From: an uncultured Candidatus Saccharibacteria bacterium
GTDB taxonomy: Bacteria; Patescibacteriota; Doudnabacteria; UBA920
Assembly: GCA_964505635.1 (NCBI GenBank)
Contig: CAZDIP010000003.1
Span: 15,313-79,312 of the forward strand
DNA length: 64,000 nucleotides
Direction of reading: 5' to 3'
This document shows, one piece after another, positions 11,900-57,137 of the stretch. Numbering within the stretch: the first letter of the stretch is position 1; each line of letters starts with the position of its first letter. Below the pieces are notes generated by a model. It searched no databases. It saw nothing but the letters and a program-made list of their open reading frames with translations, and was not told the DNA's origin. A program made the translations under genes and the position numbers.

Positions 11900-11909
11900 T
11901 TTTAAATTT

Positions 11910-11934
11910 AAAGGCTCACATAATGTGAGCCTTT
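11910..11934. terminator. hairpin after typA (weak intrinsic terminator)
   Basis: AGGCTCAC-ATAAT-GTGAGCCT stem. The U-tract is short on both strands. Confidence 0.35.
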
Positions 11935-11943
11935 AAAAAATGC

Positions 11944-12330
11944 CTATTTTATGGGTAATTTATAATATACTTCCCTGCCCCTTTCGTTAACCCGAATAAG
12001 CTTACCTAAATCAGTTAAATATTTTAAATAGCGGGTAGCAGTAGCATCGGAAACTTTTAAACTTTGCTGGACTATGTCGTTAGTTAATTGAGAATGTTGT
12101 AAGGCTAGTTTGATAATTTTATCCAGGTTTTCCCGACATTTTTTTATAGCTTCTGCATTTAAAGGGTTATCGGAAAAATCATCAATTTTACCGTCCCTGT
12201 AAAACAAAGCCGCGAAGCCCGCCAAACCAAAAATTGCCAAAATAAAAGCGGCTTTTAAATTCACCAAGGCTAAAAGCAAAACCCCGAAAGCAAAAAGAAT
12301 CTGCCATTTAACTTGTTGTTTAAATATCAT
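11944..12330 (-). CDS. membrane-anchored winged-helix DNA-binding protein (hypothetical regulator)
   Basis: Two N-terminal TM helices followed by a C-terminal wHTH-like segment (SDATATRYLKYLTDLGKLIRVNERGREVYYKL). Confidence 0.4.
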   Translation of the reverse strand: MIFKQQVKWQILFAFGVLLLALVNLKAAFILAIFGLAGFAALFYRDGKIDDFSDNPLNAEAIKKCRENLDKIIKLALQHSQLTNDIVQQSLKVSDATATRYLKYLTDLGKLIRVNERGREVYYKLPIK

Positions 12331-12416
12331 GCCTTTATTTATATTTACTTAATAAAGTAAGGGGCACTGAACCAAGAATTACCAAGATCCAGTGCCAAAG
12401 ATCTCTGCGAGTATCT

Positions 12417-12914
12417 TTATTTGCCCGCAAGCAAAAGACTCGGTTCAGCGACCAGGCACATAGCCTGGTAGTGTACGGTTACCCTAAGGATACCGCTTTT
12501 GAAAGCTAGACTGTTCCTCTTCTGTTCTCTGACGGGGTTTACGCACTCGTGTTCAATAACCAGCCGGCTAGTAGCCCGGTTAAGAATTCGCAGAAAAACT
12601 CGCCCAACGGCGTTACTTCGTTTTTGGACAACTAAAGTCTGCCGAGTGTCAGGCCGTTCCATAACAAAGTCATACACCGCCAGGGTCTTGTCAGAAACCG
12701 CCCCGAGCGCCCAAAGCGTGCCTAGACTTGACAGCGCGGTCGGGGCAAGCAAAAAGTGCCCAGCCAAAACCTCAAAGCCGTTTTCATCTAGCCTCACAAC
12801 CACCTTGCCGTCAACCTGCGCCTGCCTCGCCAATGGCGGAAATTCCAGATTTTGTACCAAAGCGTCTTGCCCGAAAGCAAGAAAAGTAACCAAGAATACG
12901 CTAAGCAGCCTCAT
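12417..12914 (-). CDS. secreted protein with TonB C-terminal-like motif, in a compositionally foreign (GC-rich) segment
   Basis: Strong SD (AAGGAGG 7 nt from the ATG). Signal peptide MRLLSVFLVTFLAFGQDA. FPPLARQAQVDGKVVVRLDENG resembles the TonB_C YPxxAxxxxxEGxVxV motif. GC is about 50% against about 35% in the flanks. Confidence 0.45.
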   Translation of the reverse strand: MRLLSVFLVTFLAFGQDALVQNLEFPPLARQAQVDGKVVVRLDENGFEVLAGHFLLAPTALSSLGTLWALGAVSDKTLAVYDFVMERPDTRQTLVVQKRSNAVGRVFLRILNRATSRLVIEHECVNPVREQKRNSLAFKSGILRVTVHYQAMCLVAEPSLLLAGK

Positions 12915-12941
12915 TAAGGCCTCCTTACCTACAGTATAACA

Positions 12942-12975
12942 AAAACTCCCCTGCTTTTAACAAGGGAGTTTTAAT
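12942..12975 (-). terminator. intrinsic terminator of the 12983..13948 gene
   Basis: On the minus strand: AAAACTCCC-loop-GGGGAGTTTT followed by TTTTGTT. It lies immediately after the stop codon. Confidence 0.55.
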
Positions 12976-12982
12976 TAACTAA

Positions 12983-13948
12983 CTATTGCGCTCCTGTCGG
13001 GGTTGGGGTTGGAGTTACTGTAGGAGTTGGTGTTGGAGTTGTAGAAGGCGGAGTTGAACTTGCATTTCCAGTTGCCGTACAATTTTTTTGGTTTGCTTTT
13101 CTGGTATCACTCGCGGTTTTGGTTGCTGCTTTATAGGCATCATTTGCGGCCTTAACAGCGGCGTTATACTTTTCGTTAGCTGCTTTTACCGCGGCAACAT
13201 AAGCTTCATTTGCAGCTTTCATTGCTGCTTTGTAAGTGTCTGAACTTGTTCCAGCAGCTGCCTTATAGGCTTCGTTTGCGGCTTTTACTGCTGCCTCATA
13301 TTTTTCGTTTGCGGCTTTTACTGCAGCTTCGTAAGCAGCTTTAGCAGCGGTAATGCTTTCTGGCGTGGAGCTTGCGTTTAAAACATTATTTAGAACAGTT
13401 TTAGCCGCTTCTATTTCTGCTTTTCTGGTATTTTTAGCATTTTCTATGGCTGTATTGCGAGTTGTTTTTAAAGTACTATTAGTAGTGGTGCTGGTGCCTG
13501 TTGCCTGGGAACGAGCAGATTTTCTGGTTTCTAAAGCAGTTTTTAATTCTGTCTGTCTGGTTTCTCTAGCTTTTTTTAAAGCTTCCGAACGAACTTCTTT
13601 GGCGGCTTTGGTAGCTTCCGAATAATTTTCATTCACATCTTTATTTTGTTCTCTGCAGATTTTTAAGGCTTCTTTCTGCTGTTCTGCCTTCTTTTTTGCT
13701 TCTTCTCTTCTGCTTTCGGCTTCTTTTTTCATAGCCTCAGCCTTTTCTTCCATTAAATCCTTCAATTCTTCCCGCTTTTTTTCCATTTCCTTTTTATAGG
13801 TTTCAGACTCACTTTGCATTGAAGTCTTAATTCCTAAAATTCTACCTTCTATTTCCTGCACTGGAGTTGCCATTGCAGAAAACGCCGGCAAAACCAAACC
13901 TGCGGAAACGGCAGCGGCTGCGGCGATCTTGAATATTTTATTACGCAT
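12983..13948 (-). CDS. secreted coiled-coil repeat protein with Pro/Thr-rich C-terminal tail
   Basis: Signal peptide (MRNKIFKIAAAAAVSAGLVLPAFSA). A K/E-rich coiled-coil. Repeated AAVKAANEKYEAAVKAANEAYKAA units. A TPTPTPTVTPTPTPT tail. Confidence 0.55.
   Translation of the reverse strand: MRNKIFKIAAAAAVSAGLVLPAFSAMATPVQEIEGRILGIKTSMQSESETYKKEMEKKREELKDLMEEKAEAMKKEAESRREEAKKKAEQQKEALKICREQNKDVNENYSEATKAAKEVRSEALKKARETRQTELKTALETRKSARSQATGTSTTTNSTLKTTRNTAIENAKNTRKAEIEAAKTVLNNVLNASSTPESITAAKAAYEAAVKAANEKYEAAVKAANEAYKAAAGTSSDTYKAAMKAANEAYVAAVKAANEKYNAAVKAANDAYKAATKTASDTRKANQKNCTATGNASSTPPSTTPTPTPTVTPTPTPTGAQ
13120..13350 (-). repeat. in-frame tandem DNA repeats (about 48-nt units) encoding AAVKAANE(K/A)Y repeats
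   Basis: Repeated GCTGCTTTATAGGC.TC.TTTGCGGC.TT.AC.GC units are visible in the sequence. Confidence 0.5.
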
Positions 13949-14052: not shown

Positions 14053-15024
14053 TTAAATCAACAACTGGGTTAAAATTAAGTCCAACATAACTTTGGGAGG
14101 CATGGTAGAGCTTTTAAGCTCAGAATCAAGAGCATTTAGCTTACTTAGCAGATCTAAAACCTGTGCAACCGAAAACCTTTGGGCGATTTTTTTCATAACA
14201 AACAGTCTGCCGCTTTTCCACTTAGTAAGCTCCAAAATTTGAGTTTCGGTTTGGTTGTGGGCGATCAAATCCTGCAGCATGGCCACATTCCTAAATTGCT
14301 CAGCCAAGAGAGCGTTTAACTGAATGACGGCTGATTTTTCGTCACCCCCCGTACCCTGGCTTAAAAATTTTGCCGAAAGCTCAAGGCTCAAAATTTTATT
14401 TTTGTCGGCAATTGCGTTAGTTATACTCAATGCGTCTGTCTCGCCATTTCTAAAAATTAAAAGTTCTACGTCTTGTTTAGTTATTTCCCTGCCGTTTGCC
14501 CAGGCCGCCAATTTTTTTAATTCGCTGTCTGCTTGCCATAAGCTGTATACTTCATCTACGGAGATTATTTTGCCTCCAATCCTATTTTCCTTGGCGTCAT
14601 CGCGACCCAGTCTTATGGCCAGCTCCCTAACCGCTACTGGATTAATTTTTGCATTTAATTCCTTAGCCCGACTAATTATCCATTTATCCAACTCTTCTTT
14701 ATGGGGCAAGAAAAAACTTTTTATAACAACAGCCGGATTTTCCAAAAACTCTTTATTTTCTTTTTTTCGTTTATCTAAAGACTTAACGCTAACAATAATA
14801 TAATTTTTAGACCAGGCTAATTTCTGAATATTTTTAAAACTTCGGGCTTGATTAATCAAAAAAACTTTGGGTTTTAAAAATAAATCAGTTTCAAAAAATA
14901 TGGATTCATCGGGTAATTCCTGATTTTCTTCGTAGACTGACAAAGTCGCCCCTTTTTCCTTAACCAAGGAGTCTATAAAACTTTTTTTAGTATAATCATC
15001 AGACCCTAAAAGCAAATAAATCAT
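14053..15024 (-). CDS. holA: DNA polymerase III subunit delta (HolA-like)
   Basis: N-terminal MIYLLLGSDDY typical of HolA, a length of about 323 aa and a clamp-loader delta-like helical C-terminus. Confidence 0.55.
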   Translation of the reverse strand: MIYLLLGSDDYTKKSFIDSLVKEKGATLSVYEENQELPDESIFFETDLFLKPKVFLINQARSFKNIQKLAWSKNYIIVSVKSLDKRKKENKEFLENPAVVIKSFFLPHKEELDKWIISRAKELNAKINPVAVRELAIRLGRDDAKENRIGGKIISVDEVYSLWQADSELKKLAAWANGREITKQDVELLIFRNGETDALSITNAIADKNKILSLELSAKFLSQGTGGDEKSAVIQLNALLAEQFRNVAMLQDLIAHNQTETQILELTKWKSGRLFVMKKIAQRFSVAQVLDLLSKLNALDSELKSSTMPPKVMLDLILTQLLI

Positions 15025-15176
15025 AAAGGTATAGCCCTTAAAAACCAGCTAATTGATAATACCACCAAAAGAAAAAGGGCTCAAATTGGTGTTTTAGGCT
15101 ATTGAAAAAGCATAAAAAATATTGTAGAATATCAAAGTTAATGTATATTTTGATTGCATGAGCTTAAATGTAGCAT

Positions 15177-15252
15177 GGGTCGGTAGCTCAGTTGGTAGAG
15201 CAGACGCCTCTTAAGCGTAAGCGCGTGGGTTCGATCCCCACCCGACCCACCA
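15177..15252 (+). tRNA. tRNA-Lys (anticodon CTT), CCA encoded
   Basis: Manual cloverleaf: acceptor GGGTCGG/CCGACCC; D arm GCTC-AGTTGGTA-GAGC; anticodon loop CTCTTAA; T arm GTGGG-TTCGATC-CCCAC; terminal ACCA. Confidence 0.85.
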
Positions 15253-15253
15253 T

Positions 15254-15276
15254 AAAAACCCCTACTCGGGGTTTTA
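15254..15276. terminator. hairpin between convergent tRNA genes
   Basis: AAAACCCC-TACTC-GGGGTTTT, which is symmetrical and so works on both strands. Confidence 0.5.
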
Positions 15277-15283
15277 ATTTTAC

Positions 15284-15360
15284 TGGTGACTCCGGCAGGA
15301 GTCGAACCTGCTACCTCCTGGTTCGAAGCCAGGCGCTCTATCCAAATGAGCTACGGAGTC
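15284..15360 (-). tRNA. tRNA-Arg (anticodon TCG), CCA encoded
   Basis: The reverse complement folds as: acceptor GACTCCG/CGGAGTC; D arm GCTC-ATTTGGATA-GAGC; anticodon stem CCTGG/CCAGG with loop CTTCGAA; T arm GCAGG-TTCGACT-CCTGC; terminal ACCA. Confidence 0.85.
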
Positions 15361-16908: not shown

Positions 16909-17970
16909 TTAAAGTTGAACATTAACCCCGCTTAAAGCCAAGCCTAAAGACGTAGTGTAACTTAAAGAGTCAATTTGATTGATTGGCGGGGTTTTATCTA
17001 AACCCACGTTAACCCAAGGATTGCCAATTTCTATCTTTAAGCCGGGTCTTTCACTAAATTCGGTGACTAAATATTCCGGTAAATTTTTCATTTTTGCCGC
17101 ACCGCCGGTTAAGATAATTTTCTCCACCATATTAGCAGAGTGCTCACTGTGAAATTTTAAAATATTTTTAATTTCTGCCCCTAGATTATTCAAAACCGGG
17201 GCAACCGAAGTTTTAATGTTGGGATATTCTGAAGTATTATCCATACCGACTTTTTGTTTGATGACTTCGGCCTTTACACTTGCTATACCTAAAGATTTAG
17301 CTATGGCCTCGGTAAAACTGTTGCCACCTATCGGGATGGTTGAAGTAAATTGCAAATTGCCATCCTCTACCATAACCAAACCGCTGCGACTCGCCTCCAT
17401 ATCTACTATTAACAGGGCGGATTTTTGCTCTTTAGAAACCAAGGCTCTGGCACAAGCTTGGGATTCCACCTCCAAAGCCACGGGCTTTATTCCACAATGA
17501 TCTAAGACTGACAAATAAGAGTCAACAAATTCTTTTGGGGAAGCAATAATTAAAATATTATATTTTTCACCACTCTCGCCGATTTTTTGCCAATCCATAT
17601 AAACCTGATCCAACGGCAACGGTATAAAACTTTCAGCCTCAAAAGGAATAGCCGACTGAGCTTCCGAGTCACTCATTTTGGGAATTTGAATAACCCTGAC
17701 AAAAGACTTGGATTCAGGCAAACTCACTACAGCATATTCTGCAGAAAATCTTCCAAACTGAGGTTTATTTAAAGCTTGTTTAATCAAATAATCAAAAGTT
17801 TTTTGGTCGGTAATTACGTCATTTACCACCAAACCTTTAGGAACCTGGGTTTCGGTAAAAGCCTGCAACCTGTTACCTTGTTTAAGGCCTAACAGCTGCA
17901 TAAATTTCAAAGAATTAGCGCTAATATCCAATCCATAGGCTATTTTTTTGTCAGAAAAAAAATTAAACAT
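16909..17970 (-). CDS. pilM: type IV pilus assembly ATPase-like protein PilM
   Basis: Actin-like fold pattern (GLDISANSLK...), a length of 353 aa and PilM-like conserved segments. Confidence 0.7.
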   Translation of the reverse strand: MFNFFSDKKIAYGLDISANSLKFMQLLGLKQGNRLQAFTETQVPKGLVVNDVITDQKTFDYLIKQALNKPQFGRFSAEYAVVSLPESKSFVRVIQIPKMSDSEAQSAIPFEAESFIPLPLDQVYMDWQKIGESGEKYNILIIASPKEFVDSYLSVLDHCGIKPVALEVESQACARALVSKEQKSALLIVDMEASRSGLVMVEDGNLQFTSTIPIGGNSFTEAIAKSLGIASVKAEVIKQKVGMDNTSEYPNIKTSVAPVLNNLGAEIKNILKFHSEHSANMVEKIILTGGAAKMKNLPEYLVTEFSERPGLKIEIGNPWVNVGLDKTPPINQIDSLSYTTSLGLALSGVNVQL

Positions 17971-17973
17971 AAT

Positions 17974-19185
17974 TTATTGAATATTTTGACTGATATTATA
18001 AATCGGAGCAATTAATGCCATGGCCAAAAGTCCCACTATGCCGCCAATAAGCAATAAAAGTAATGGTTCAATAACCGAAGAAAGGTTTCTTAAGGTAGTA
18101 TCTACTTCATCTTCGTAATGCAATGCCAACTGTTCTAAAATATTTTCCACGGTTCCGCTTTCCTCCCCTACCTGGAGCATTTGAACGACTAAAATTGGAA
18201 AAAGCTGGTTATTACGGTTTAGACTTTCAGTCAATGGCTTACCAAGTTTGACATCAACAGAAGACTGTGAAACCAACTCTCTGTAAGGAATATTGGACAA
18301 GGAATTACTTGCTACTTCCAAACCCTGCACTATGGGTATTCCGCTTTTTAACAAAGAGCTCAAAATTCTGGAAAATCTTGCCAAATTAATCTTTTTTATT
18401 ATGTTGTTAATTACATAAAAATGCAAAAAAAATATATCAAATGCTTTTTTCCCAGGATAGGTTTTATATATTGATATTATAGCAATAACCAAACCTATTA
18501 TTCCAAAAATAACCAGCGTGCCGTTAGCACTCATAAAATCAGCTACGGCTATAACGGCTTTGGTGGTTGCGGGTAAATCTGTGTTAAATTCCTTGAAAAT
18601 AGAAGTTAATTTAGGCAAAACAAAAATTGACATTAAAATACCTATAATCAACATTGCCCCCACAATTACTGAAGGATAAATCATGGCGCCCTTGGCCTTG
18701 CTTCTAAGTTCATATTCTCTTTGCAGCTGAATGCTTAAATATTCCAAGCTTTTGTCTAAATTGCCCGATATCTCCCCAACTTTTATCATGCTAATAAAAA
18801 TATTTGTAAACACCGAAGGATACTTTTCCATGGCCTCTGACAGACCCTTGCCTGACTGAACCTGCGAATAGATATCTGCAATAATATTTTTAAATCTGGG
18901 GTTTTGGGTCTGCTTTACTAAAATTTGCAAAGCGCGGCTGACAGAAATTCCCGCCTTTAACATAATGCTCAAATTTTCAATAAACCCTATTTTTTCCTGT
19001 AGAGAAATGGTTGAGAAACTTTTCAAAAAAACCATCGCGCTGGATTTGCGGGTTTCCTCAATTTGAGTAGGCAAAAGACCCTGTTCTTTCAAAATATGAC
19101 CGGCTGCTATTGCATTCGGGGCCTGGATGGTAGAAGATTCGTGTTTACCATCTTTTGTTAGCGCTTTGTAAGAAAATTCTGGCAT
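17974..19185 (-). CDS. pilC: type IV pilus platform protein PilC (GspF family)
   Basis: Two GspF-like repeats with three TM segments and a length of about 403 aa. Confidence 0.8.
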   Translation of the reverse strand: MPEFSYKALTKDGKHESSTIQAPNAIAAGHILKEQGLLPTQIEETRKSSAMVFLKSFSTISLQEKIGFIENLSIMLKAGISVSRALQILVKQTQNPRFKNIIADIYSQVQSGKGLSEAMEKYPSVFTNIFISMIKVGEISGNLDKSLEYLSIQLQREYELRSKAKGAMIYPSVIVGAMLIIGILMSIFVLPKLTSIFKEFNTDLPATTKAVIAVADFMSANGTLVIFGIIGLVIAIISIYKTYPGKKAFDIFFLHFYVINNIIKKINLARFSRILSSLLKSGIPIVQGLEVASNSLSNIPYRELVSQSSVDVKLGKPLTESLNRNNQLFPILVVQMLQVGEESGTVENILEQLALHYEDEVDTTLRNLSSVIEPLLLLLIGGIVGLLAMALIAPIYNISQNIQ

Positions 19186-19197
19186 TGTAGTAAAATA

Positions 19198-20949
19198 TTA
19201 TTCCTTACTTACCCTGACAATTTCTTCCAGCGTGGTTATTCCTTTTAAAGCTTTAATAAACCCGTCTTCCCACATAAGTATCATCCCTTCTTTTTCAGCC
19301 TGTTCCTGGATTTCCTGGGCTGATTTATGCTGCATGATCATATCACCAATAAGCGGGGTTACTTCTAAAATTTCATGAATGCCCACCCTTCCCCTATAAC
19401 CTGAATTGTTGCATTTATCACAACCATGGCCTTTAAAAAATTTCAAATCTTTTATGCTCTTAACTTTATTAGCCAACCCTTCCCTGCTTAAAGTAGTATA
19501 AAATTTTTCCAAATGAAATTGTTTACCTAAACTGTCTTCAAAAGCCTGATCAATTTTTACTTCTTCGGAACAATCCTTACAAATAACCCGAACCAATCTC
19601 TGAGCCAAAACCGCGTTAACTGTAGAAGCAATCAAAAAACTCTCCACGCCTATATCAATCAACCTGGGCAAAGCTCCTGCGGCGCTATTGGTGTGTAAGG
19701 TAGAAAATACTATATGGCCGGTCATGGCAGCATGAACCGCTTCTTCAGCCGTTTCCTTGTCGCGAATTTCGCCGATCATTATAACGTTAGGATCCTGTCT
19801 TAAAAGTGCCCTTAAACCCATGGCAAAAGTCAAACCTATTTTTGGATTAACCTGCATTTGATTTGCACCGACAATTCTATACTCCACCGGGTCTTCAATG
19901 GTGGATATATTAACCGATTTGCTGTTTAACATAGACAAAACCGTATATAAAGTGGTGGATTTACCACTACCAGTAGGGCCGGTAACCAAAAGCATGCCGT
20001 GAGGCTTTTTTATACTGCGCATGATTGTATCATATGCCGATTTTTCAAATCCCAAATCTTCCAAACTCTGCGCTTTAGCGGATTCATCTAAAAGCCTCAT
20101 GACTACTTTTTCCCCATCAAAAATCGGGATCGTAGAAACGCGCAAAGAAAACTTGAAACCGTCTTTTTCAATCTTAAAACGCCCGTCTTGCGGCAACCTA
20201 TGTTCGTCTATTTTTAAATTGGAAAGAACTTTAATTCGCGCGACAATAGCGGCTTGAATAACTTTTGGCAAAGTCATAACATCATGCAAGACGCCGTCTA
20301 TACGATATCGAACGCTGACTGAATTTTCCTGCGGTTCTATATGGATGTCGGAAGCTTTTTCAAAAATAGCATATTCCAAAAGCGTATCCACCACCCGGAT
20401 AACAGGCACTTCCTCAGCCATCTTTTTCAAACCATCCTCTATTTCTTCCGCGGTTTCAGGCCCTTTGGTTAAAGCTTTGCTGGGTGCCGCAAATAAGTGT
20501 TTAATTTCCTTTTCCAAGCTGGTATGGTATTTAGATAGGCCGAAATCCAGGCTTGTTTTACCGATTAAAAACGCCTTAATTGCCAAACCGGTTTTCTTGT
20601 GAATAAACTCTTTAGTCTGAATGTCTTCCGGATCTGTCATAGCTAAAGACAACTCGTCTTTGCTTTTAGCATAACTTATTACCTGATGGCGATGAGCTAT
20701 GGGCTCAGGTACTAAATTTAAAACTTCTTGGGGAATTTGCAATTCCCTTAAATCCACAATTGGGACACTTAAAATCTCAGCTTTTGTTTTAAGCAACTGT
20801 TCTTCTGTAACAATCTTTTTTTGAACTAAAAAATCTTCCCAACTAACTGATGCTTTAGTTGAGCTAAGCTCTTTTTCCAGTTGAGAAAGGTTATTTTCTG
20901 TGATTAATTTCTTTTGTTTTAGAGCAGTATTAAGCTGCTTTTTATCCAT
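19198..20949 (-). CDS. pilB: type IV pilus assembly ATPase PilB (GspE family)
   Basis: Walker A GPTGSGKST, a His box (TLHTNSAAG), the Asp box, an N-terminal GSPII domain and a C-terminal CxxC-CxxC zinc site. Confidence 0.85.
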   Translation of the reverse strand: MDKKQLNTALKQKKLITENNLSQLEKELSSTKASVSWEDFLVQKKIVTEEQLLKTKAEILSVPIVDLRELQIPQEVLNLVPEPIAHRHQVISYAKSKDELSLAMTDPEDIQTKEFIHKKTGLAIKAFLIGKTSLDFGLSKYHTSLEKEIKHLFAAPSKALTKGPETAEEIEDGLKKMAEEVPVIRVVDTLLEYAIFEKASDIHIEPQENSVSVRYRIDGVLHDVMTLPKVIQAAIVARIKVLSNLKIDEHRLPQDGRFKIEKDGFKFSLRVSTIPIFDGEKVVMRLLDESAKAQSLEDLGFEKSAYDTIMRSIKKPHGMLLVTGPTGSGKSTTLYTVLSMLNSKSVNISTIEDPVEYRIVGANQMQVNPKIGLTFAMGLRALLRQDPNVIMIGEIRDKETAEEAVHAAMTGHIVFSTLHTNSAAGALPRLIDIGVESFLIASTVNAVLAQRLVRVICKDCSEEVKIDQAFEDSLGKQFHLEKFYTTLSREGLANKVKSIKDLKFFKGHGCDKCNNSGYRGRVGIHEILEVTPLIGDMIMQHKSAQEIQEQAEKEGMILMWEDGFIKALKGITTLEEIVRVSKE

Positions 20950-31986: not shown

Positions 31987-32565
31987 ATGTTTGACAGTAT
32001 ACGACGGGAAAATAACCGCCCTCTCGTTCTCCCTAATATGCCCAATTTGCATATCGTGGCGCTCTCAGCACCTCCCCTCATGACTCCTGGCGCGACTGTT
32101 ATGTCGGAATTTACGGCAGACAATGTCGCGAGAATCGTTCATGCGTCTAACCTGCGTGAGCAGGTACAAGACGCTAAACTGGTGTTGAATGGGGAAAGCA
32201 ACCAACTCACCATGATGCTGCACATCGCGCTTAAGTGCGGGGTGCCGGCAAACTTCATTGAGCTGGTAGACTGCAACCCGCGCCCCAACGGAAATACTCG
32301 CACACAGCTCCAAAAGATGGAAAAAGACCTGCGCTTCCCGCAGGATGGCTACTATGTGTTTGTGACCGTTTCGTGGCATATGCCACGGGTTATCGCGACC
32401 GCCCGCAAACAACTCAAGCGGCTTGCCAACCATATGGTCGTCGGCGTACCGTACGCTGATTTCCACGACTTTGACTGGAACGAAAAGGTCGCCGACGAAA
32501 TGTGGCGCATCCCCCAATACATCAACAAGGGAGACATTGCCGACCCGACAATCGGCATGGAGTAG
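31987..32565 (+). CDS. DUF218 (YdcF/ElyC/SanA family) domain protein, GC-rich foreign-like gene
   Basis: Order LHIVALSA, KLVLNGES, CGVPANFIELVDCNPRPNGNTRTQ and YVFVTVSWHMPRV matches the DUF218 core pattern vvvLGG, vvsGG, GVp...ie..S.nT.eNa and vvVTs..HmpRa. GC is about 53%. Confidence 0.5.
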   Translation: MFDSIRRENNRPLVLPNMPNLHIVALSAPPLMTPGATVMSEFTADNVARIVHASNLREQVQDAKLVLNGESNQLTMMLHIALKCGVPANFIELVDCNPRPNGNTRTQLQKMEKDLRFPQDGYYVFVTVSWHMPRVIATARKQLKRLANHMVVGVPYADFHDFDWNEKVADEMWRIPQYINKGDIADPTIGME

Positions 32566-32571
32566 CCACCT

Positions 32572-33237
32572 ATGCTCCCTCCTCGTGATAAGAACGGTTT
32601 TCAAGTCATTGCCTCGAGCGCAGGCGTGAAAGTGGAAACCTGTTTTGCTGAATTCAATGTCCGGCAGCAGACTGCTGCCAACGGACAAACGGAAACGTGG
32701 GGCCGGCTTATAACCCGTCCTGCGTTTGAAGTCGCGTTGCTTGCAAAGGAAGACGGCGAAACCAAAGTTCTCCTTATGCAAAAACAGCGCCTCGCGGGCG
32801 AACCCCCGGTCACTAAATGTCCGGGCGGATACATCTTCTTAAAAGGCAGCGAACTCAACTTGGACAACTTCCTGTCTAAGATCCTTGGCGGCGGATTCGG
32901 CTCTGTTGACCTGTATGACGTTCTGCCTTTCGGTTCGTTCATTGAAGAACGAATGTTGTCCTTAGGGATCTGTACTAACTTTACAAACATGCAGCTCTTT
33001 GGCTGCGTGGTAGGTCACGGCGAAATCATTACCCCCATTCTCCTGCTTGCCACCAACAAATGGCAACAGGTCGCGCCCCCGCCAGAGGGCATATCTTTCC
33101 GCAAAATGCTTCTTTCGGAAGCGGCGCGCCTGGCAGTGCAAACCGTCCAGATAGGCCGACGGATGAAAGATGCGCTTGACAGCGACAGCAGCGTGGAGCT
33201 GCTATTGTCGCTGTACGCCAAAGAACAGCTCCGCTAA
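32572..33237 (+). CDS. hypothetical protein with weak NUDIX-fold-like pattern (degenerate Nudix box), GC-rich foreign-like gene
   Basis: KVLLMQKQR...CPGGYIFLKGSE...ILGGGFG resembles the strand-loop-helix of a Nudix fold but lacks the REx2EE glutamates. SD GGAG sits 9 nt upstream. It lies 6 nt after the upstream gene. Confidence 0.3.
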   Translation: MLPPRDKNGFQVIASSAGVKVETCFAEFNVRQQTAANGQTETWGRLITRPAFEVALLAKEDGETKVLLMQKQRLAGEPPVTKCPGGYIFLKGSELNLDNFLSKILGGGFGSVDLYDVLPFGSFIEERMLSLGICTNFTNMQLFGCVVGHGEIITPILLLATNKWQQVAPPPEGISFRKMLLSEAARLAVQTVQIGRRMKDALDSDSSVELLLSLYAKEQLR

Positions 33238-42539: not shown

Positions 42540-43160
42540 GTGGAGTTGAGAAGAAGGTTGGAGAGGGTTATCCTTGAAAACCCGATGTTTGAGTGGGACT
42601 GGAGAAAGTCTCGTGAGCAGCGGCGAGCTGTACACGAACTTTTTTCCACGCCAATACCTCCCAGCGCAAACCCCAAAGGTGGAGTGAGCCGAGAGGTCTA
42701 CTACGGCTTCAAGGAAGGCTGCGCTACAGCAAACGCGGACATGGTCGTCTGCACCCGCCTTGAAACCGGTGAGTGCGCTGTCCTGGCACTTCATAGGGAC
42801 CCAGGCACACCGTTTGGCGGGGTATGGGATATGGGCGGCGGGGCAATCCTCGCCTACCAGGCAATCGCTGATTGCCTAAAAGCCAAATCCCAAAAAGAAA
42901 CCGGTCTCACCCTAGAGCCCGAGGCGCTGTTAGGCTGCTACCGCAACGACGCGCCCGACATGGCGTCAAGCGTCATCGCGCTGTGCTACGTTGCCACAGC
43001 ACCAGTGCAGCAGCTTCAATCAGTGGTTGCCGGGGACGGCAACCACAAGTGGCAATTTTTCACTTTGGCAGACCTGGAGAATCTGCCAGCGAACCAGACC
43101 TACTGGTATGCCATGTATGTCTGGCGCAAGGTCTTAGAGGCCGCGCCACGCGTCCTCTAA
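42540..43160 (+). CDS. NUDIX-fold-like protein with degenerate Nudix box, GTG start, GC-rich foreign-like gene
   Basis: SD GAGGAGG lies 7 nt before the GTG. AVLALHRD...FGGVWDMGGGAILAYQAIADCLKAKSQKETGL follows the Nudix pattern vLLvqR..G.W.lPGG.vE.GE...A.REl.EEtGl, but with the REx2EE glutamates replaced. HKWQFF sits at the usual C-terminal Trp position. GC is about 57%. Confidence 0.4.
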   Translation: MELRRRLERVILENPMFEWDWRKSREQRRAVHELFSTPIPPSANPKGGVSREVYYGFKEGCATANADMVVCTRLETGECAVLALHRDPGTPFGGVWDMGGGAILAYQAIADCLKAKSQKETGLTLEPEALLGCYRNDAPDMASSVIALCYVATAPVQQLQSVVAGDGNHKWQFFTLADLENLPANQTYWYAMYVWRKVLEAAPRVL

Positions 43161-53342: not shown

Positions 53343-56300
53343 CTAATTCAAGGAAAGACCCTGAGAGTCAGTAGGAATAGTTCTTACATAGCGGCCATTG
53401 GTCCAGTCATCCGAGCTGCTTGACCCAGCGGTGTCGCTGTGAGAAGTAGCGGACATATCGGACCAAATGAAGTTATAAGCTGCGGTGGCGGCTTCCATGT
53501 CGTTACCAACGTTGTTGGTATCGTCCTGGTCACGCAATTGCTGCGCGGCAGCCAAAGTGCTTAAGTCACCGGTAACCGCGGCGGTGTCAGTCGTGGCAAT
53601 AGAAGTCGTGACCGAATCGCCGGTATCAGCGCCAGCGACCGTGGCTTTGAAGTCATAGGTCTTGGAGCTGCCGGAAGTAATAAGTTCTTCCGAGTTAAAG
53701 GTGATATCAACAGTAACCGAGCCTGCAGCATAAGTAGCTGAGCTGGTTACGGTTAAGTTGCTTCCGCCCTGCGGGGCAATGGCAAAGGAAGACAAAGACA
53801 CGCCGGTAGTGGAAGAGCTGGTGAAGGTAATATGCTTAAGAGCAATATCATTATCAACAGCAGTCACTTTAAAGCGGTACAAAGTCTGGGTGCCGTTACC
53901 CAAAGAGCTGGTCATAGCCACGGTTTCTACTTTCGGCTGGCTCTTTCTTAAGACAACATAGCTGCCTACATAAGAACCGCTGGAAGGAGCAGTCAAAGTG
54001 GTAGAACCGGAAGTGCCGCGAACCTCAAAGTTGTTGCTGCCGTCAAGCCAGACAGCGAATTCATCGCCGCTGTCAGCACCATTGGAAATAGTGTTAAGGT
54101 CAGCTTTAACAGTTAAGTTCTTGCTGGCATCCTTGCCGATTATAAAGTCGGCGGTCATGCCGGTAAAGTCAGCATAGCCTTCAATGGTGCCGGACGGAGT
54201 CAAAGACACCGGACCTGCGACCAAGGTGCTGCCGTCATACAAGTAGAGGGCAGTAATGTCGTCGGCTATATTGGCTGCCGAAGCGGCTGTGGAGCTGGCT
54301 GTGGCAACCGCAATGCGGGCTTTGGTCAGCTTAAGCTCTTCGTTAACCGCGGTAAAGCGGATTTTGCCCAAAGTTACACCGGTTTTACCAGCAGTAACAA
54401 TGCGGGCGTCAGTAACATCCTGTTCGTTGTTACCAGCTGTGGCGACCGTAATGGTGCCGGCGCCGGTAATGGTAATGGCGGTACCAACCGTAGTGGTGGT
54501 GCTGCCGTTAACCGGATAGCTGGTGCTATCGGTTACGCTGTTACCGTCAGGATCAACCGCAGTAATGCTGGAAGAAGCAATTTTCCATTTGATAACATTG
54601 CTGGAGTTGGCGGAGTTTGAAATGGTCATTTTAACCACCAAAGTCTTGCTGCTACCTTTCGGAACTACCCAGTTAAGACCGTTGAAGGTCATAGTACCGG
54701 CAGTGGAAGGAGATTTAGTCTGGCCGATTTTGGTCGCGCCGTCGTAAAGCTCAACAGTTACCACGTTGTCAGACACATAAATTGTGCTGGCAGAGGCGTT
54801 GGTAGTGCTGCCATCAGCCATGGTGGCTGCGGCCGCGGAAGCTATCATACCGGTTAAGGTAAGGTCGGTGACTTTTACGTCAGCCGCGGTAGAAGCGGTA
54901 AAGACATAGCCAGCTGCTTCAACCATGGTGCTGCCTTTGACAAAGGACTTGGAAGTCGGAGTAGCGGCCAAAGCAACAGTCAAAGAAGGAACCCTAACTG
55001 TCATTTGGTTACCTGAAATGTCAGAGGTAGGCACTATGTCAGTGGAGGTTAAGAAGGTGTTGTTGTCAGTGTTCTTAACGTCGTTGGAAGTTAAGCTGTC
55101 AACATCCAAAGTGGCGCCAATTACGTCGCCGGAAGTAACATCGGAATTGTTGGCAACATCCAAAGTAACCTTATAGGTTTTGGAAGTACCGGCGGCCAAA
55201 AAGACGTCTTCCGTAAAGGTAAGAGTCTGAGAGGTGGCGCTGCCTGTGCCGGACAAATCCTGAGGCCCGAAAACTACGGCGCCGGTTGTGGCGTCTACGA
55301 CTTTTACGTCGGTGTAGTTAGGGGTGGTATTGTCGTTAAAATCAGCAGTACCGCTGCCGCCGTTGTTGAACACAAAGGCCAACTGGCGGATTTCCAAGTT
55401 GTTCTGGGCAGCCATGGTGAAGTTGAAAACTTCAACATCTTTGCCGTTCTTGGCAATATCCTTGGCAGACGGACCGTTAAAGGTAATGGTCAACTGACCA
55501 CCTTCAACGTAGCTGTAAGAACAGTCGCCGGAAGAAGAAGTACAGCTGTCGCCGTCATAATCCGTAGAGGTAACAGCAGTGCCAAAACCATAGGTCTGGC
55601 CTACCGCGAACAAGTCGGTAGATTCTTCTAAGTAGAATTTGACGGTTTCGGAAGAACCCGTGCGGGAACCGCCGGAAACGTTGGCGTAGACTTCAAAAGT
55701 CTTGGTATCGCCCTTGGCTAAGGCAAAGTTAACTTCAAAGTTAGCTTTGTCTTCGCTGTCTAAGGCAGCTACGGTGGCTAAGGTGTTGCCGGCCTGCTTT
55801 AAGACCAAATTGGTCAAGTTAGAGCTGGCAACAGCGCCGCCCTGGTAAAGAGAAATTCTCTTAACCACGACGTCTTCGGAAGAGCTGGCGGCCAAGGTAA
55901 AGGAACCTACTCTGACATTCTGCTCACCAACTTTAGGGTTGGTAATGCTGCCGGTTTTGGCAATAGTGACAGTACCGGATGAAACACCGGCGAGAGTCAT
56001 GCTGTTGCCGCTGGCAGTGCCGCTGGCCTGGGTTGAACCAAGCATAACGGAAGTCACCATTAACTGGTGAACATTGCCCGCTGTGGCGGAAGAATAAATA
56101 TCAGCCAATACGTCCATGGTAATGGATCCGCCGGCCGGAACATTCACGTTAAGGCCGGAGAACACCGCTTCGTTGGTGGAAGAGTTAACACTGCGTCCAG
56201 AGGTTAATCTGGAAGCGCCCTGGTAAAGGTAAACGTTGGTCAGGTCCGAAGTGGAACCCGCGCCGGTGCGTTTAACTGTAACCTGGTTAACTGTGGCAGC

Positions 56301-57137
56301 TGAAGTGCCGCCGTTGTAAACCACAAACTTAAGGAAGTTAACATTGGTGGCTCCTTTGGGAACAGTGGAAGGCGGAGTCTGGTTAGAGGCCGCGCCGACG
56401 GTGACTGAACCCGGAGTCGGAGAAGGATTCTGGGGGTTAGAAGTCCAAGAAGGAGAAAGTTGTCCTAATTGGCGGGCGACCATTACGCCGGAAACCGGCC
56501 AGGTCTGAGTGGCGGCGTTAGCCGGCACTGCCTTGCTAAAGGAATAGCCCCAGGAATTGAAAACTTCGTTGCTCGGAATGCCAAGCAAGCTGTTGGCGCC
56601 TACTAAGAAATAGGTTTTATTACCGTTATAGTTGAAATAGGTAATAACACCGGTTCTTAAGGCAGCAGTGGTGTTTTCAATGTTGGAATCGGCCGACAAG
56701 AAGGAAACATCGCCGCTCATGGCGTTAGCAAAGCTAAAACCAAGCCCGGTGAAAACTTCTTGGGACACGAAACCGGCTTTTTTGCCGTTGGTTATAAGGT
56801 AGCAAGTACCTTGGTCAGGGGATCTATCGGAACAAATGATAGAACCATCCTGAGGGGGAATAAAGCCAGCCGGGTCAACCGGTAAGGCTAAATCGTCGGC
56901 GTTAGCAGTCTGTACGGTGGCAAACGAGTTGAAACCGTAAGACAAGAAAGCGCCGCCGGAAGTGTAGGCGCGGCGGGTATTGCTGGAAGTAATCATCCAG
57001 ACAGTACCGTCAGAAGTAATGACATTGGTTCCGGCCGGGTGGGCAGCAGCTTGTGCTACCAACGGAGCAGCCAAAGACATGGTCATTGCAACCGCAGATC
57101 CTACAGCAAAGAGTTTCTTTGCAACAGAATTTTGCAT
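53343..57137 (-). CDS. giant secreted Ser/Thr/Gly-rich cell-surface protein (S-layer or adhesin-like), 1264 aa
   Basis: Signal peptide MQNSVAKKLFAVGSAVAMTMSLAAPLVAQAAA. Very high T/S/G/A/V content with repeated beta-rich (Ig-like) segments. It is preceded by a long AT-rich leader of about 580 nt. Confidence 0.6.
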   Translation of the reverse strand: MQNSVAKKLFAVGSAVAMTMSLAAPLVAQAAAHPAGTNVITSDGTVWMITSSNTRRAYTSGGAFLSYGFNSFATVQTANADDLALPVDPAGFIPPQDGSIICSDRSPDQGTCYLITNGKKAGFVSQEVFTGLGFSFANAMSGDVSFLSADSNIENTTAALRTGVITYFNYNGNKTYFLVGANSLLGIPSNEVFNSWGYSFSKAVPANAATQTWPVSGVMVARQLGQLSPSWTSNPQNPSPTPGSVTVGAASNQTPPSTVPKGATNVNFLKFVVYNGGTSAATVNQVTVKRTGAGSTSDLTNVYLYQGASRLTSGRSVNSSTNEAVFSGLNVNVPAGGSITMDVLADIYSSATAGNVHQLMVTSVMLGSTQASGTASGNSMTLAGVSSGTVTIAKTGSITNPKVGEQNVRVGSFTLAASSSEDVVVKRISLYQGGAVASSNLTNLVLKQAGNTLATVAALDSEDKANFEVNFALAKGDTKTFEVYANVSGGSRTGSSETVKFYLEESTDLFAVGQTYGFGTAVTSTDYDGDSCTSSSGDCSYSYVEGGQLTITFNGPSAKDIAKNGKDVEVFNFTMAAQNNLEIRQLAFVFNNGGSGTADFNDNTTPNYTDVKVVDATTGAVVFGPQDLSGTGSATSQTLTFTEDVFLAAGTSKTYKVTLDVANNSDVTSGDVIGATLDVDSLTSNDVKNTDNNTFLTSTDIVPTSDISGNQMTVRVPSLTVALAATPTSKSFVKGSTMVEAAGYVFTASTAADVKVTDLTLTGMIASAAAATMADGSTTNASASTIYVSDNVVTVELYDGATKIGQTKSPSTAGTMTFNGLNWVVPKGSSKTLVVKMTISNSANSSNVIKWKIASSSITAVDPDGNSVTDSTSYPVNGSTTTTVGTAITITGAGTITVATAGNNEQDVTDARIVTAGKTGVTLGKIRFTAVNEELKLTKARIAVATASSTAASAANIADDITALYLYDGSTLVAGPVSLTPSGTIEGYADFTGMTADFIIGKDASKNLTVKADLNTISNGADSGDEFAVWLDGSNNFEVRGTSGSTTLTAPSSGSYVGSYVVLRKSQPKVETVAMTSSLGNGTQTLYRFKVTAVDNDIALKHITFTSSSTTGVSLSSFAIAPQGGSNLTVTSSATYAAGSVTVDITFNSEELITSGSSKTYDFKATVAGADTGDSVTTSIATTDTAAVTGDLSTLAAAQQLRDQDDTNNVGNDMEAATAAYNFIWSDMSATSHSDTAGSSSSDDWTNGRYVRTIPTDSQGLSLN

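Follow-up and report, generated by a model that had tools for sequence, protein, structure and literature searches.

A predicted exported, TonB_C-related protein encoded by an apparently acquired gene in a Patescibacteria genome

The DNA analysed here (the window) is a stretch of 64,000 nucleotides from the assembly of an uncultured Candidatus Saccharibacteria bacterium (GCA_964505635.1, contig CAZDIP010000003.1, positions 15,313 to 79,312 of the forward strand), in which most genes lie on the minus strand. Between the gene of a small helix-turn-helix (HTH) protein (11944-12330, minus strand; PF08220-like in Pfam) and that of a coiled-coil protein (12983-13948, minus strand) lies a gene referred to here as ORF165 (12417-12914, minus strand, coordinates including the stop codon), which runs in an intact frame from an ATG start to a TAA stop and encodes a protein of 165 amino acids. 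An earlier note on this DNA, made from the letters alone, had placed a 165-aa gene in a stretch of about 500 bp with a guanine plus cytosine (GC) content of about 50%, and the gene was found there with a GC content of 51.8%. Its product is predicted to be a secreted TonB_C-like protein of an uncharacterised family of about 170 residues. That ORF165 is real, exported, related to TonB_C and horizontally acquired, all four taken jointly, is concluded with high confidence. Two relatives found through their TypA genes are referred to throughout, namely the closest (locus L003, TypA 92% identical) and the next (locus L004, TypA 86% identical).

The start signals of ORF165 are easily recognised. The sequence AAGGAGG, read at 12920-12926 (minus strand), 5 nt upstream of the ATG, is the perfect Shine-Dalgarno sequence that the earlier note had reported, and the L003 orthologue has AAGGAGGG in this role at an unchanged distance from the start. 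A promoter-like site (TTAAAA, a 16-nt spacer and TG-n-TATACT; 12933-12960, minus strand) overlaps the upstream terminator; it is a consensus match only, with 9 of 12 consensus positions and an extended -10 TG in a consensus scan, and the corresponding position in L003 reads TGGTATAAT.

ORF165 had also been described as bracketed by hairpins. Both hairpins exist, but the upstream one is native to the locus and only the 3' one lies in the GC island. The upstream hairpin (12942-12972, minus strand) begins 10 nt after the stop codon of the coiled-coil gene and consists of a 14-bp stem followed by a U-run within the tail UUUUUGUU; its folding energy is -22.2 kcal/mol (z -5.9, with 0 of 200 shuffles as stable), and a simple terminator scanner missed it because an A/U extension of the stem absorbs the tail. 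It was rightly read as an upstream terminator, and it is conserved together with the coiled-coil gene. Since an orthologous hairpin (AAAAACTCTCTTG...CAAGGGAGTTTTT) is kept behind the coiled-coil gene of L004, which is without ORF165, the hairpin is the native intrinsic terminator of that gene and not a cassette border, and the insert begins just downstream of it. The 3' stem-loop (12363-12396, minus strand), with an 11-bp stem after the ORF165 stop, folds at -24.2 kcal/mol for a 72-nt stretch (z -3.9) and is followed by CCUUACUUUAUU, with no clean U-run; L003 has a different GC-rich hairpin and U7 in the equivalent place. It is probably ORF165's own weak terminator. As a separate observation, the coiled-coil terminator of L003 is split (L003:16020-16284), its arms AAAAACTCCCTTGCT (left) and AGCAGGGGAGTTTTT (right) standing about 235 bp apart, and the DNA inserted in the loop has inverted repeats of its own (ctgcccgccaaag/cttggcaggcag and cccagcacc/ggtgctggg); for this insert, a miniature mobile element and the gene of a small RNA are two possibilities.

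The N-terminus of the ORF165 protein (12870-12914, minus strand; residues 1-15, MRLLSVFLVTFLAFG, followed by QD) opens with a charged n-region, continues with a hydrophobic core of 12 residues and has A-F-G in positions -3 to -1, an arrangement that looks like Sec signal-peptide anatomy with a putative cleavage site A-F-G/Q. What the earlier note called a clear signal peptide was thus recovered, as a signal-peptide-like segment, on reading the sequence. In the AlphaFold2 model a helix spans residues 3-21, and an N-terminal hydrophobic segment is present in 54 of 63 family members, with a consensus ending A-x-A-Q. The model, built on 63 sequences, has a predicted local distance difference test (pLDDT) score of 92.7 and divides the remaining protein into two parts. 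The first, the TonB_C-like domain (residues ~23-87; 12654-12848, minus strand), was delimited by profile-profile comparison (hhalign), by the Pfam matches of family members and by the modelled order of strands and helices. It contains the segment FPPLARQAQVDGKVVV (residues 25-40), which the earlier note had compared to the TonB motif, and its modelled elements are a short helix (27-31, within FPPLARQ), strands at 36-43 and 46-51, a helix at 57-69 and a strand at 78-86; this predicted helix-strand-strand-helix-strand order matches that of TonB_C.

The second part is a C-terminal extension of about 78 residues (residues 88-165; 12420-12653, minus strand), modelled as a strand (89-98), a helix (102-110) and three further strands (116-125, 135-139 and 142-150). 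It is rich in beta structure and has a conserved FxR..LR helix. Arg105 and Cys124 are nearly invariant over the 63-sequence family alignment, all three of Arg105, Cys124 and Cys153 are invariant among 26 full-length C-terminal halves, and 50 of 51 full-length members have at least two cysteines after residue 90. A Cys124-Cys153 disulfide is presumed, and the helix bearing Arg105 and Arg109 is a candidate ligand site. No Pfam or NCBIfam model matches the extension, nor was there a meaningful PDB sequence match; modelled alone it reaches a pLDDT of 80. Foldseek returned no significant match for the full model against PDB and BFVD or for the C-terminal half against PDB. Internal duplication was considered as the source of the extension and rejected, as hhalign found the C-terminal half unrelated to the N-terminal half or to TonB.

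The kinship with TonB emerged only at the level of the family. A direct profile search with the ORF165 protein, which the earlier note had put forward as the check on its TonB-C resemblance, gave zero families in Pfam and NCBIfam even at E ≤ 10; there was likewise no PHROGs match, and no PDB sequence reached the threshold. An exhaustive phmmer search of 1.84 billion cluster representatives, on the other hand, returned 53 homologues at E ≤ 1e-3, nearly all of them 140-180 aa long and aligned end to end, a few longer ones being repeats of canonical TonB C-terminal domains. This search, together with tblastn on the loci of relatives, overturned the ORFan status suggested when a word-indexed search of 5.8 billion proteins returned ORF165 alone. 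Pfam TonB_C (PF03544) matches 20 of 50 family members (best E 1.5e-9) and TIGR01352 (tonB_Cterm) 3 of 63, and the family profile in turn retrieves TonB-annotated, PF03544-bearing proteins with E values down to 1.9e-26. When the family profile (A3) was compared by hhalign with a profile of 25 canonical TonB proteins (A4), residues 23-72 aligned with a probability of 98.9% and an E value of 1.7e-17, LEFPPLARQAQVDGKVVVRL...AGHFLLAPTALSSL of ORF165 standing opposite the YPPLARxARIQGDV...SGHPMLVPAA core of TonB. Matches of the family profile to the TonB chains 8rd6, 1u07 and 2gsk of the PDB were weak (E 0.2-0.6), the 8rd6 alignment covering residues 13-85 of 90, nearly the whole C-terminal-domain chain. 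Most family members are labelled 'hypothetical protein', and one short member is labelled a TonB-type protein. The resemblance noted earlier therefore stands, by the indirect route of 20 PF03544-matching relatives and the profile-profile alignment and not by direct search. By this sequence comparison, residues ~23-87 of ORF165 are homologous to the TonB C-terminal domain, which makes the protein a member of the TonB_C superfamily through homology, yet no TonB. The family has a previously undescribed architecture, in which a soluble TonB_C-like domain is joined to a presumably Cys-bridged extension; a search of the literature turned up no pertinent work on Patescibacteria with TonB-like proteins or on TonB C-terminal domains secreted as proteins of their own.

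In the closest relative an orthologue of ORF165 (L003:15457-15951) adjoins the same coiled-coil gene and encodes a protein that is likewise 165 aa long and is 50% identical, keeping the start, the length, the signal peptide, FPPLARQA, both cysteines and LRVTV. The nonsynonymous divergence (dN) between the two copies is 0.43 and the synonymous divergence (dS) 2.46, which is saturated, with dN/dS about 0.18. The native HTH neighbour has diverged to a similar degree between the window and L003 (55% identity, dN 0.35).

The host belongs to the Patescibacteria, or candidate phyla radiation (CPR), judging by the titles of its TypA-anchored relatives (Doudnabacteria, 'Saccharibacteria' and Patescibacteria group), and against this background ORF165 has a foreign composition, as the earlier note had held and as the composition and codon checks bore out. 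Its GC content contrasts with 39.4% for the window, and GC at the three codon positions is 0.62, 0.39 and 0.55 (GC3 0.548), compared with a GC3 of about 0.36-0.40 in ordinary genes. A 60-nt profile shows a GC island at about 12360-12930. Synonymous codon usage deviates from that of 22 background genes with z -6.0, and G at third positions (G3) is 0.325 vs 0.211; among the amino acids of the protein, Arg, Val, Ala and Leu are frequent and Lys and Ile scarce. The L003 orthologue is still GC-elevated, at 46.3% vs 41.7% for its locus. Homologues in high-GC bacteria, which the earlier note had suggested looking for, do exist. All 38 metagenome loci with full-length family members lie on contigs of 52-62% GC (median 57%), where the family genes have a GC content of 0.50-0.59 and a GC3 of 0.50-0.68, like ORF165, and three further family contigs have 59-60% GC; thus every family member outside the CPR that was looked at comes from a GC-rich contig. 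The nearest of these non-CPR members (L089-L092; contigs of 52-53% GC) is 35.6% identical over 160 aa. No other homologue of AT-rich CPR type was found in the searches of 5.8 billion and 1.84 billion proteins or in JGI contigs, and no family member was found in viral contigs. Searches of metagenome contigs with alignment A1 and of genome contigs with the HTH neighbour found no loci.

The distribution of the gene among relatives points the same way. In L004 ORF165 is absent, and the coiled-coil gene (14610-15329) and the HTH gene (14225-14536) are separated by 73 bp with the terminator alone in between; among 80 TypA-anchored relatives searched by tblastn within 8 kb on either side of TypA, L003 alone carries the gene. 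The suggestion that relatives would lack the gene at this site is thus borne out by L004 but not by L003, where it is present and GC-elevated. Because the family loci all have 52-62% GC and the flanking genes of L004 adjoin each other without ORF165, horizontal acquisition from GC-richer bacteria of the kind that hold the rest of the family is strongly supported, and so is, as the simplest history, a single acquisition once the L004 lineage had split away but before the window organism and L003 separated. From the subtype of the motif, Acidobacteriota are tentatively suspected as the source phylum. The earlier reading as a whole is therefore supported, with corrections to the route by which TonB_C kinship is established, to the ownership of the upstream hairpin and to the sharing of the gene with one sister species. 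At locus L090, which holds the nearest non-CPR member, some 430 bp separate the family gene from a downstream gene of the phage-integrase family (PF00589, E 1.7e-23) that runs off the contig end, and the contig also has a gene with an ATP-dependent DNA ligase domain (coordinates recorded with this observation are L090:2816-3424, minus strand, and L090:43-651, plus strand). There are hints here that the family is able to travel on integrative elements.

TonB_C domains use the edge of their sheet to bind a strand of a partner, and an affinity for peptidoglycan has been reported for them. Taken as a whole, the explanation that fits best, and which is favoured with moderate confidence, is that ORF165 is an acquired, exported TonB_C-like protein acting as a binding module. 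Under this explanation, the common ancestor of L003 and the window organism captured the gene from a GC-richer bacterium, at a site directly behind the terminator that natively ends the coiled-coil surface-protein gene, and the frame has since stayed open under purifying selection. The product would be exported past the cytoplasmic membrane as a soluble, disulfide-stabilised module, and the edge of its TonB_C sheet (through beta-strand augmentation of a partner peptide) or its surface would hold an envelope protein or peptidoglycan. The binding mechanism itself is modelled on what TonB_C domains do elsewhere and is offered tentatively, as a possibility on the doubtful side. A more specific scenario, in which a CPR bacterium that probably lives on or among GC-richer soil bacteria exports a captured periplasmic TonB_C module as an interaction factor, is rather improbable; such a protein could attach to a host or neighbouring cell through that cell's TonB-box-like strands, envelope proteins or peptidoglycan, or, as a decoy, it could tie up bacteriocins or phage proteins that bear TonB boxes.

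Several observations weigh against this explanation. The single-sequence searches against Pfam, NCBIfam and PDB were silent, as described above, and the binding role of ORF165 is inferred throughout. No neighbour gene is conserved across 17 family loci, so none points to a partner and none is proposed. Around the insert, the search for a target-site duplication or mobile-element ends gave just short internal chance matches, no integrase or transposase is found among the window neighbours of ORF165, and the nearest tRNAs lie at 15177-15360. Furthermore, GC3 has not drifted towards that of the host (0.55 in the window and 0.49 in L003, against about 0.38) even though dS is saturated, and a single old acquisition does not account for this. 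The window copy still equals the nearest donor-type genes in GC3. Slow or biased amelioration, selection on codons or mRNA, and later replacement are possible reasons for the undrifted GC3.

The alternative that survives best is that ORF165 was acquired horizontally but is a passenger without function in its host that has not yet degraded. Its fast evolution (50% identity, compared with 92% for TypA and 81% for the coiled-coil neighbour), its position in a plastic region where relatives carry different cargo, and the lack of partner genes would all suit such a passenger. However, the native HTH neighbour has diverged to a comparable extent, both species have kept an intact frame despite saturated synonymous sites, and the low dN/dS ratio is accompanied by retention of the signal peptide, the TonB_C motif, Arg105 and both cysteines, with a strong Shine-Dalgarno sequence and a -10 element in both species. 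A functionless passenger is therefore judged unlikely.

Less probable still is a native origin in the CPR lineage, with the GC content arising from amino-acid composition or from expression-linked codon choice. A precedent can be found within the window, as a secreted protein of 1264 aa is encoded at 53343-57137 (minus strand) by a gene that likewise has 51% GC and a GC3 of 0.55, and the high GC3 that ORF165 has kept despite saturated divergence from L003 is what selection might give. The patterns differ, however, in that the 1264-aa gene is rich in C at third positions (C3 0.41) and deviates little in codon usage (z -2.1), whereas ORF165 is rich in G at those positions and deviates far more. 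The gene is, moreover, missing from the syntenic site of L004 and from the TypA loci of 78 other relatives, and its family is otherwise confined, in the searches made, to the GC-rich contigs. As for the 1264-aa protein itself, it has a signal peptide, a very high content of Thr, Ser, Ala, Gly and Val and no match in Pfam, and Rfam finds no ribosomal RNA at the gene; it looks like a native, probably abundant, surface or surface-layer-type protein and not like foreign DNA.

It is very improbable that ORF165 transduces energy as a functioning TonB, or within a Ton-like system that has gone unrecognised, homology to the TonB C-terminal domain being the sole point in its favour. The putative signal peptide is of the cleavable type and there is no anchor helix, as no further hydrophobic helix follows the N-terminal segment; the Pro content is 3.6%, with no Pro-rich run that could form a spacer. 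The TonB_C-like domain begins 8 residues past the predicted cleavage site, and thus lies at the N-terminus of the mature protein, with 78 further, unrelated residues after it. None of ExbB, ExbD or TolQR was found among the Pfam-scanned genes within about 9 kb of ORF165, a scan that covered the near neighbours and not all of the remaining ~60 window genes; it returned an AI-2E transporter, TypA, the HTH and coiled-coil proteins, holA and PilM/PilC/PilB, together with two cluster ORFs without a Pfam match. The host, finally, belongs to the Patescibacteria, and CPR bacteria are not known to have an outer membrane or TonB-dependent receptors, which agrees with the earlier note's remark that the cell type appears to lack outer-membrane machinery in this window. 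With no anchor, spacer or nearby ExbBD, a TonB_C-like domain away from the C-terminus and a host for which an outer membrane is not known, ORF165 is inferred not to be an energy-transducing TonB.

Almost no weight is given to the idea that the GC-rich stretch is a structured non-coding RNA, or GC-rich filler with chance ORFs on its minus (165 aa) and plus (146 aa) strands. GC islands within AT-rich genomes are often RNA genes, frames are open on both strands here, and a 646-nt region is somewhat more stable in its fold than shuffled versions (minus strand z -3.65, plus strand z -2.18; 20 shuffles, terminator hairpins included), values that are unremarkable after the terminators are considered. 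Against this, Rfam over the whole window at the gathering score found just three tRNAs and no RNA family at ORF165, Rfam at E ≤ 10 on 12200-13100 gave nothing relevant, one 19-bit chance match aside, and ARAGORN found no tRNA or transfer-messenger RNA at the GC island, whereas the protein is conserved in L003 over saturated synonymous sites, has 53 protein homologues and yields a confident AlphaFold2 model. The plus-strand ORF (12499-12939, overlapping ORF165) has no homologue and no Pfam match and its L003 counterpart is only 77 aa long; it was considered as a second gene and rejected as an unconserved shadow ORF of a GC-rich gene. Given the L003 orthologue, the excess of dS over dN, the homologues and the lack of an RNA match, ORF165 is therefore a genuine, intact protein-coding gene. 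An assembly chimera, in which a fragment of a GC-richer organism was mis-joined into the CPR contig, would explain the sharp GC step at both gene ends, but it is ruled out for practical purposes, since Logan contigs from two separate sequencing runs (SRR16481186 and SRR16481182) match the window at 100% identity over 12015-13871 and 12420-13763, stretches that take in both junctions, and the independent metagenome-assembled genome L003 has the orthologue beside the same coiled-coil gene.

The surroundings of ORF165 show further variation among relatives. A plasticity zone separates TypA from the HTH gene. This interval measures 44 bp in the window (11900-11943) and about 4.2 kb in L003 (L003:9837-14078), where it holds a PspC/DUF2807 protein of 616 aa, a PadR-like protein of 118 aa and a stretch of 48-53% GC at 10.0-10.8 kb. 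In L004 (L004:9837-14224) it measures about 4.4 kb and holds unrelated cargo, with ORFs of 524, 178 and 366 aa. L003 also has an EamA transporter gene between its ORF165 orthologue and the HTH gene. On the other side, the coiled-coil neighbour, a secreted protein, is rich in Ala, Lys and Glu, ends in a tail rich in Pro and Thr (…TPTPTPTVTPTPTPTGAQ) and belongs to no Pfam family; its L003 counterpart (L003:16295-17347) is 81% identical, and L004:14610-15329 encodes a shorter, diverged protein of the same style. Beyond it, a divergent pair of tRNA genes, Lys-CTT (plus strand) and Arg-TCG (minus strand), occupies 15177-15360 between holA and a type IV pilus cluster (PilM 16909-17970, PilC 17974-19185 and PilB 19198-20949). 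Two other GC-rich cassettes lie in the window, one at 31987-33237 (plus strand, 53% GC), encoding a DUF218 protein (192 aa) and a protein of 221 aa without a Pfam match, and one at 42540-43160 (plus strand, 57% GC), encoding a NUDIX hydrolase (206 aa). The two cassettes occupy the minority strand, and in codon usage (z -9.5 to -11.3) they deviate even further than ORF165.

As it stands, ORF165 is an accessory gene and a moderately surprising, tidy case of horizontal gene transfer. It offers a clean and datable gene gain in Patescibacteria, with two species that have the gene, a next relative whose site is empty and a donor-type family that could be identified. It also illustrates how a real domain kinship may escape Pfam when one sequence is searched alone and yet be recovered by exhaustive search and profile-profile comparison, and it draws attention to an uncharacterised family of small exported proteins, with a TonB_C-like domain and a conserved, presumably Cys-bridged extension, across soil-type metagenomes. 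A surface role in a cell without an outer membrane, if true, would widen the known uses of the TonB_C fold and bear on the interaction of CPR bacteria with their neighbours. Were the captured-module scenario correct, this would be the first TonB C-terminal fold repurposed in a cell without an outer membrane, and the family of about 170 aa would constitute a new class of soluble envelope proteins built from TonB_C and a Cys extension.

Compared with the TonB C-terminal domain (PF03544; TIGR01352; E. coli structures 1U07 and 2GSK), ORF165 shares the motif [YF]P-x-x-A-R-x-A-x-[IV]-x-G-x-V, while the 'SGHP-LL' that precedes the second helix of TonB appears as AGHFLL. TonB has an N-terminal membrane anchor and a Pro-rich spacer, neither of which is present in ORF165, a protein predicted to be exported via a signal peptide in soluble form. 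The domain of ORF165 is, furthermore, not C-terminal, a beta-hairpin right after it leading into the unrelated extension, and its single sequence falls below all curated thresholds.

With the family of about 170 aa (P0006, P0047 and P0056; loci L083, L086 and L089-L126) ORF165 has the full-length architecture in common, including GDAFDRFFLR and the two cysteines of the extension, at E values of 6e-13 to 1e-3 and identities of 23-45%. The family of soil-type metagenomes is found among ordinary bacterial neighbours on contigs of 52-62% GC. An AT-rich CPR background was seen for just two members, ORF165 and the L003 orthologue. This pair is divergent, the YP motif having F in place of Y and SGHP being replaced by AGHF.

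Proteins with several TonB_C repeats (P0016, P0034 and P0038) share with ORF165 the motif subtype 'YPPLARQARIQG...SGHPLL'. Accessory TonB_C-domain proteins are also represented by fusions of M56 peptidases with TonB_C and by GltG and GltJ of Myxococcus. Unlike ORF165, the multi-repeat and accessory proteins have a complete canonical domain ending in W-x-Y-x-P...V-x-F, are larger or attached to the membrane, and have no Cys extension; they nevertheless provide precedents for TonB_C as a binding module outside the ExbBD-TonB transducer.

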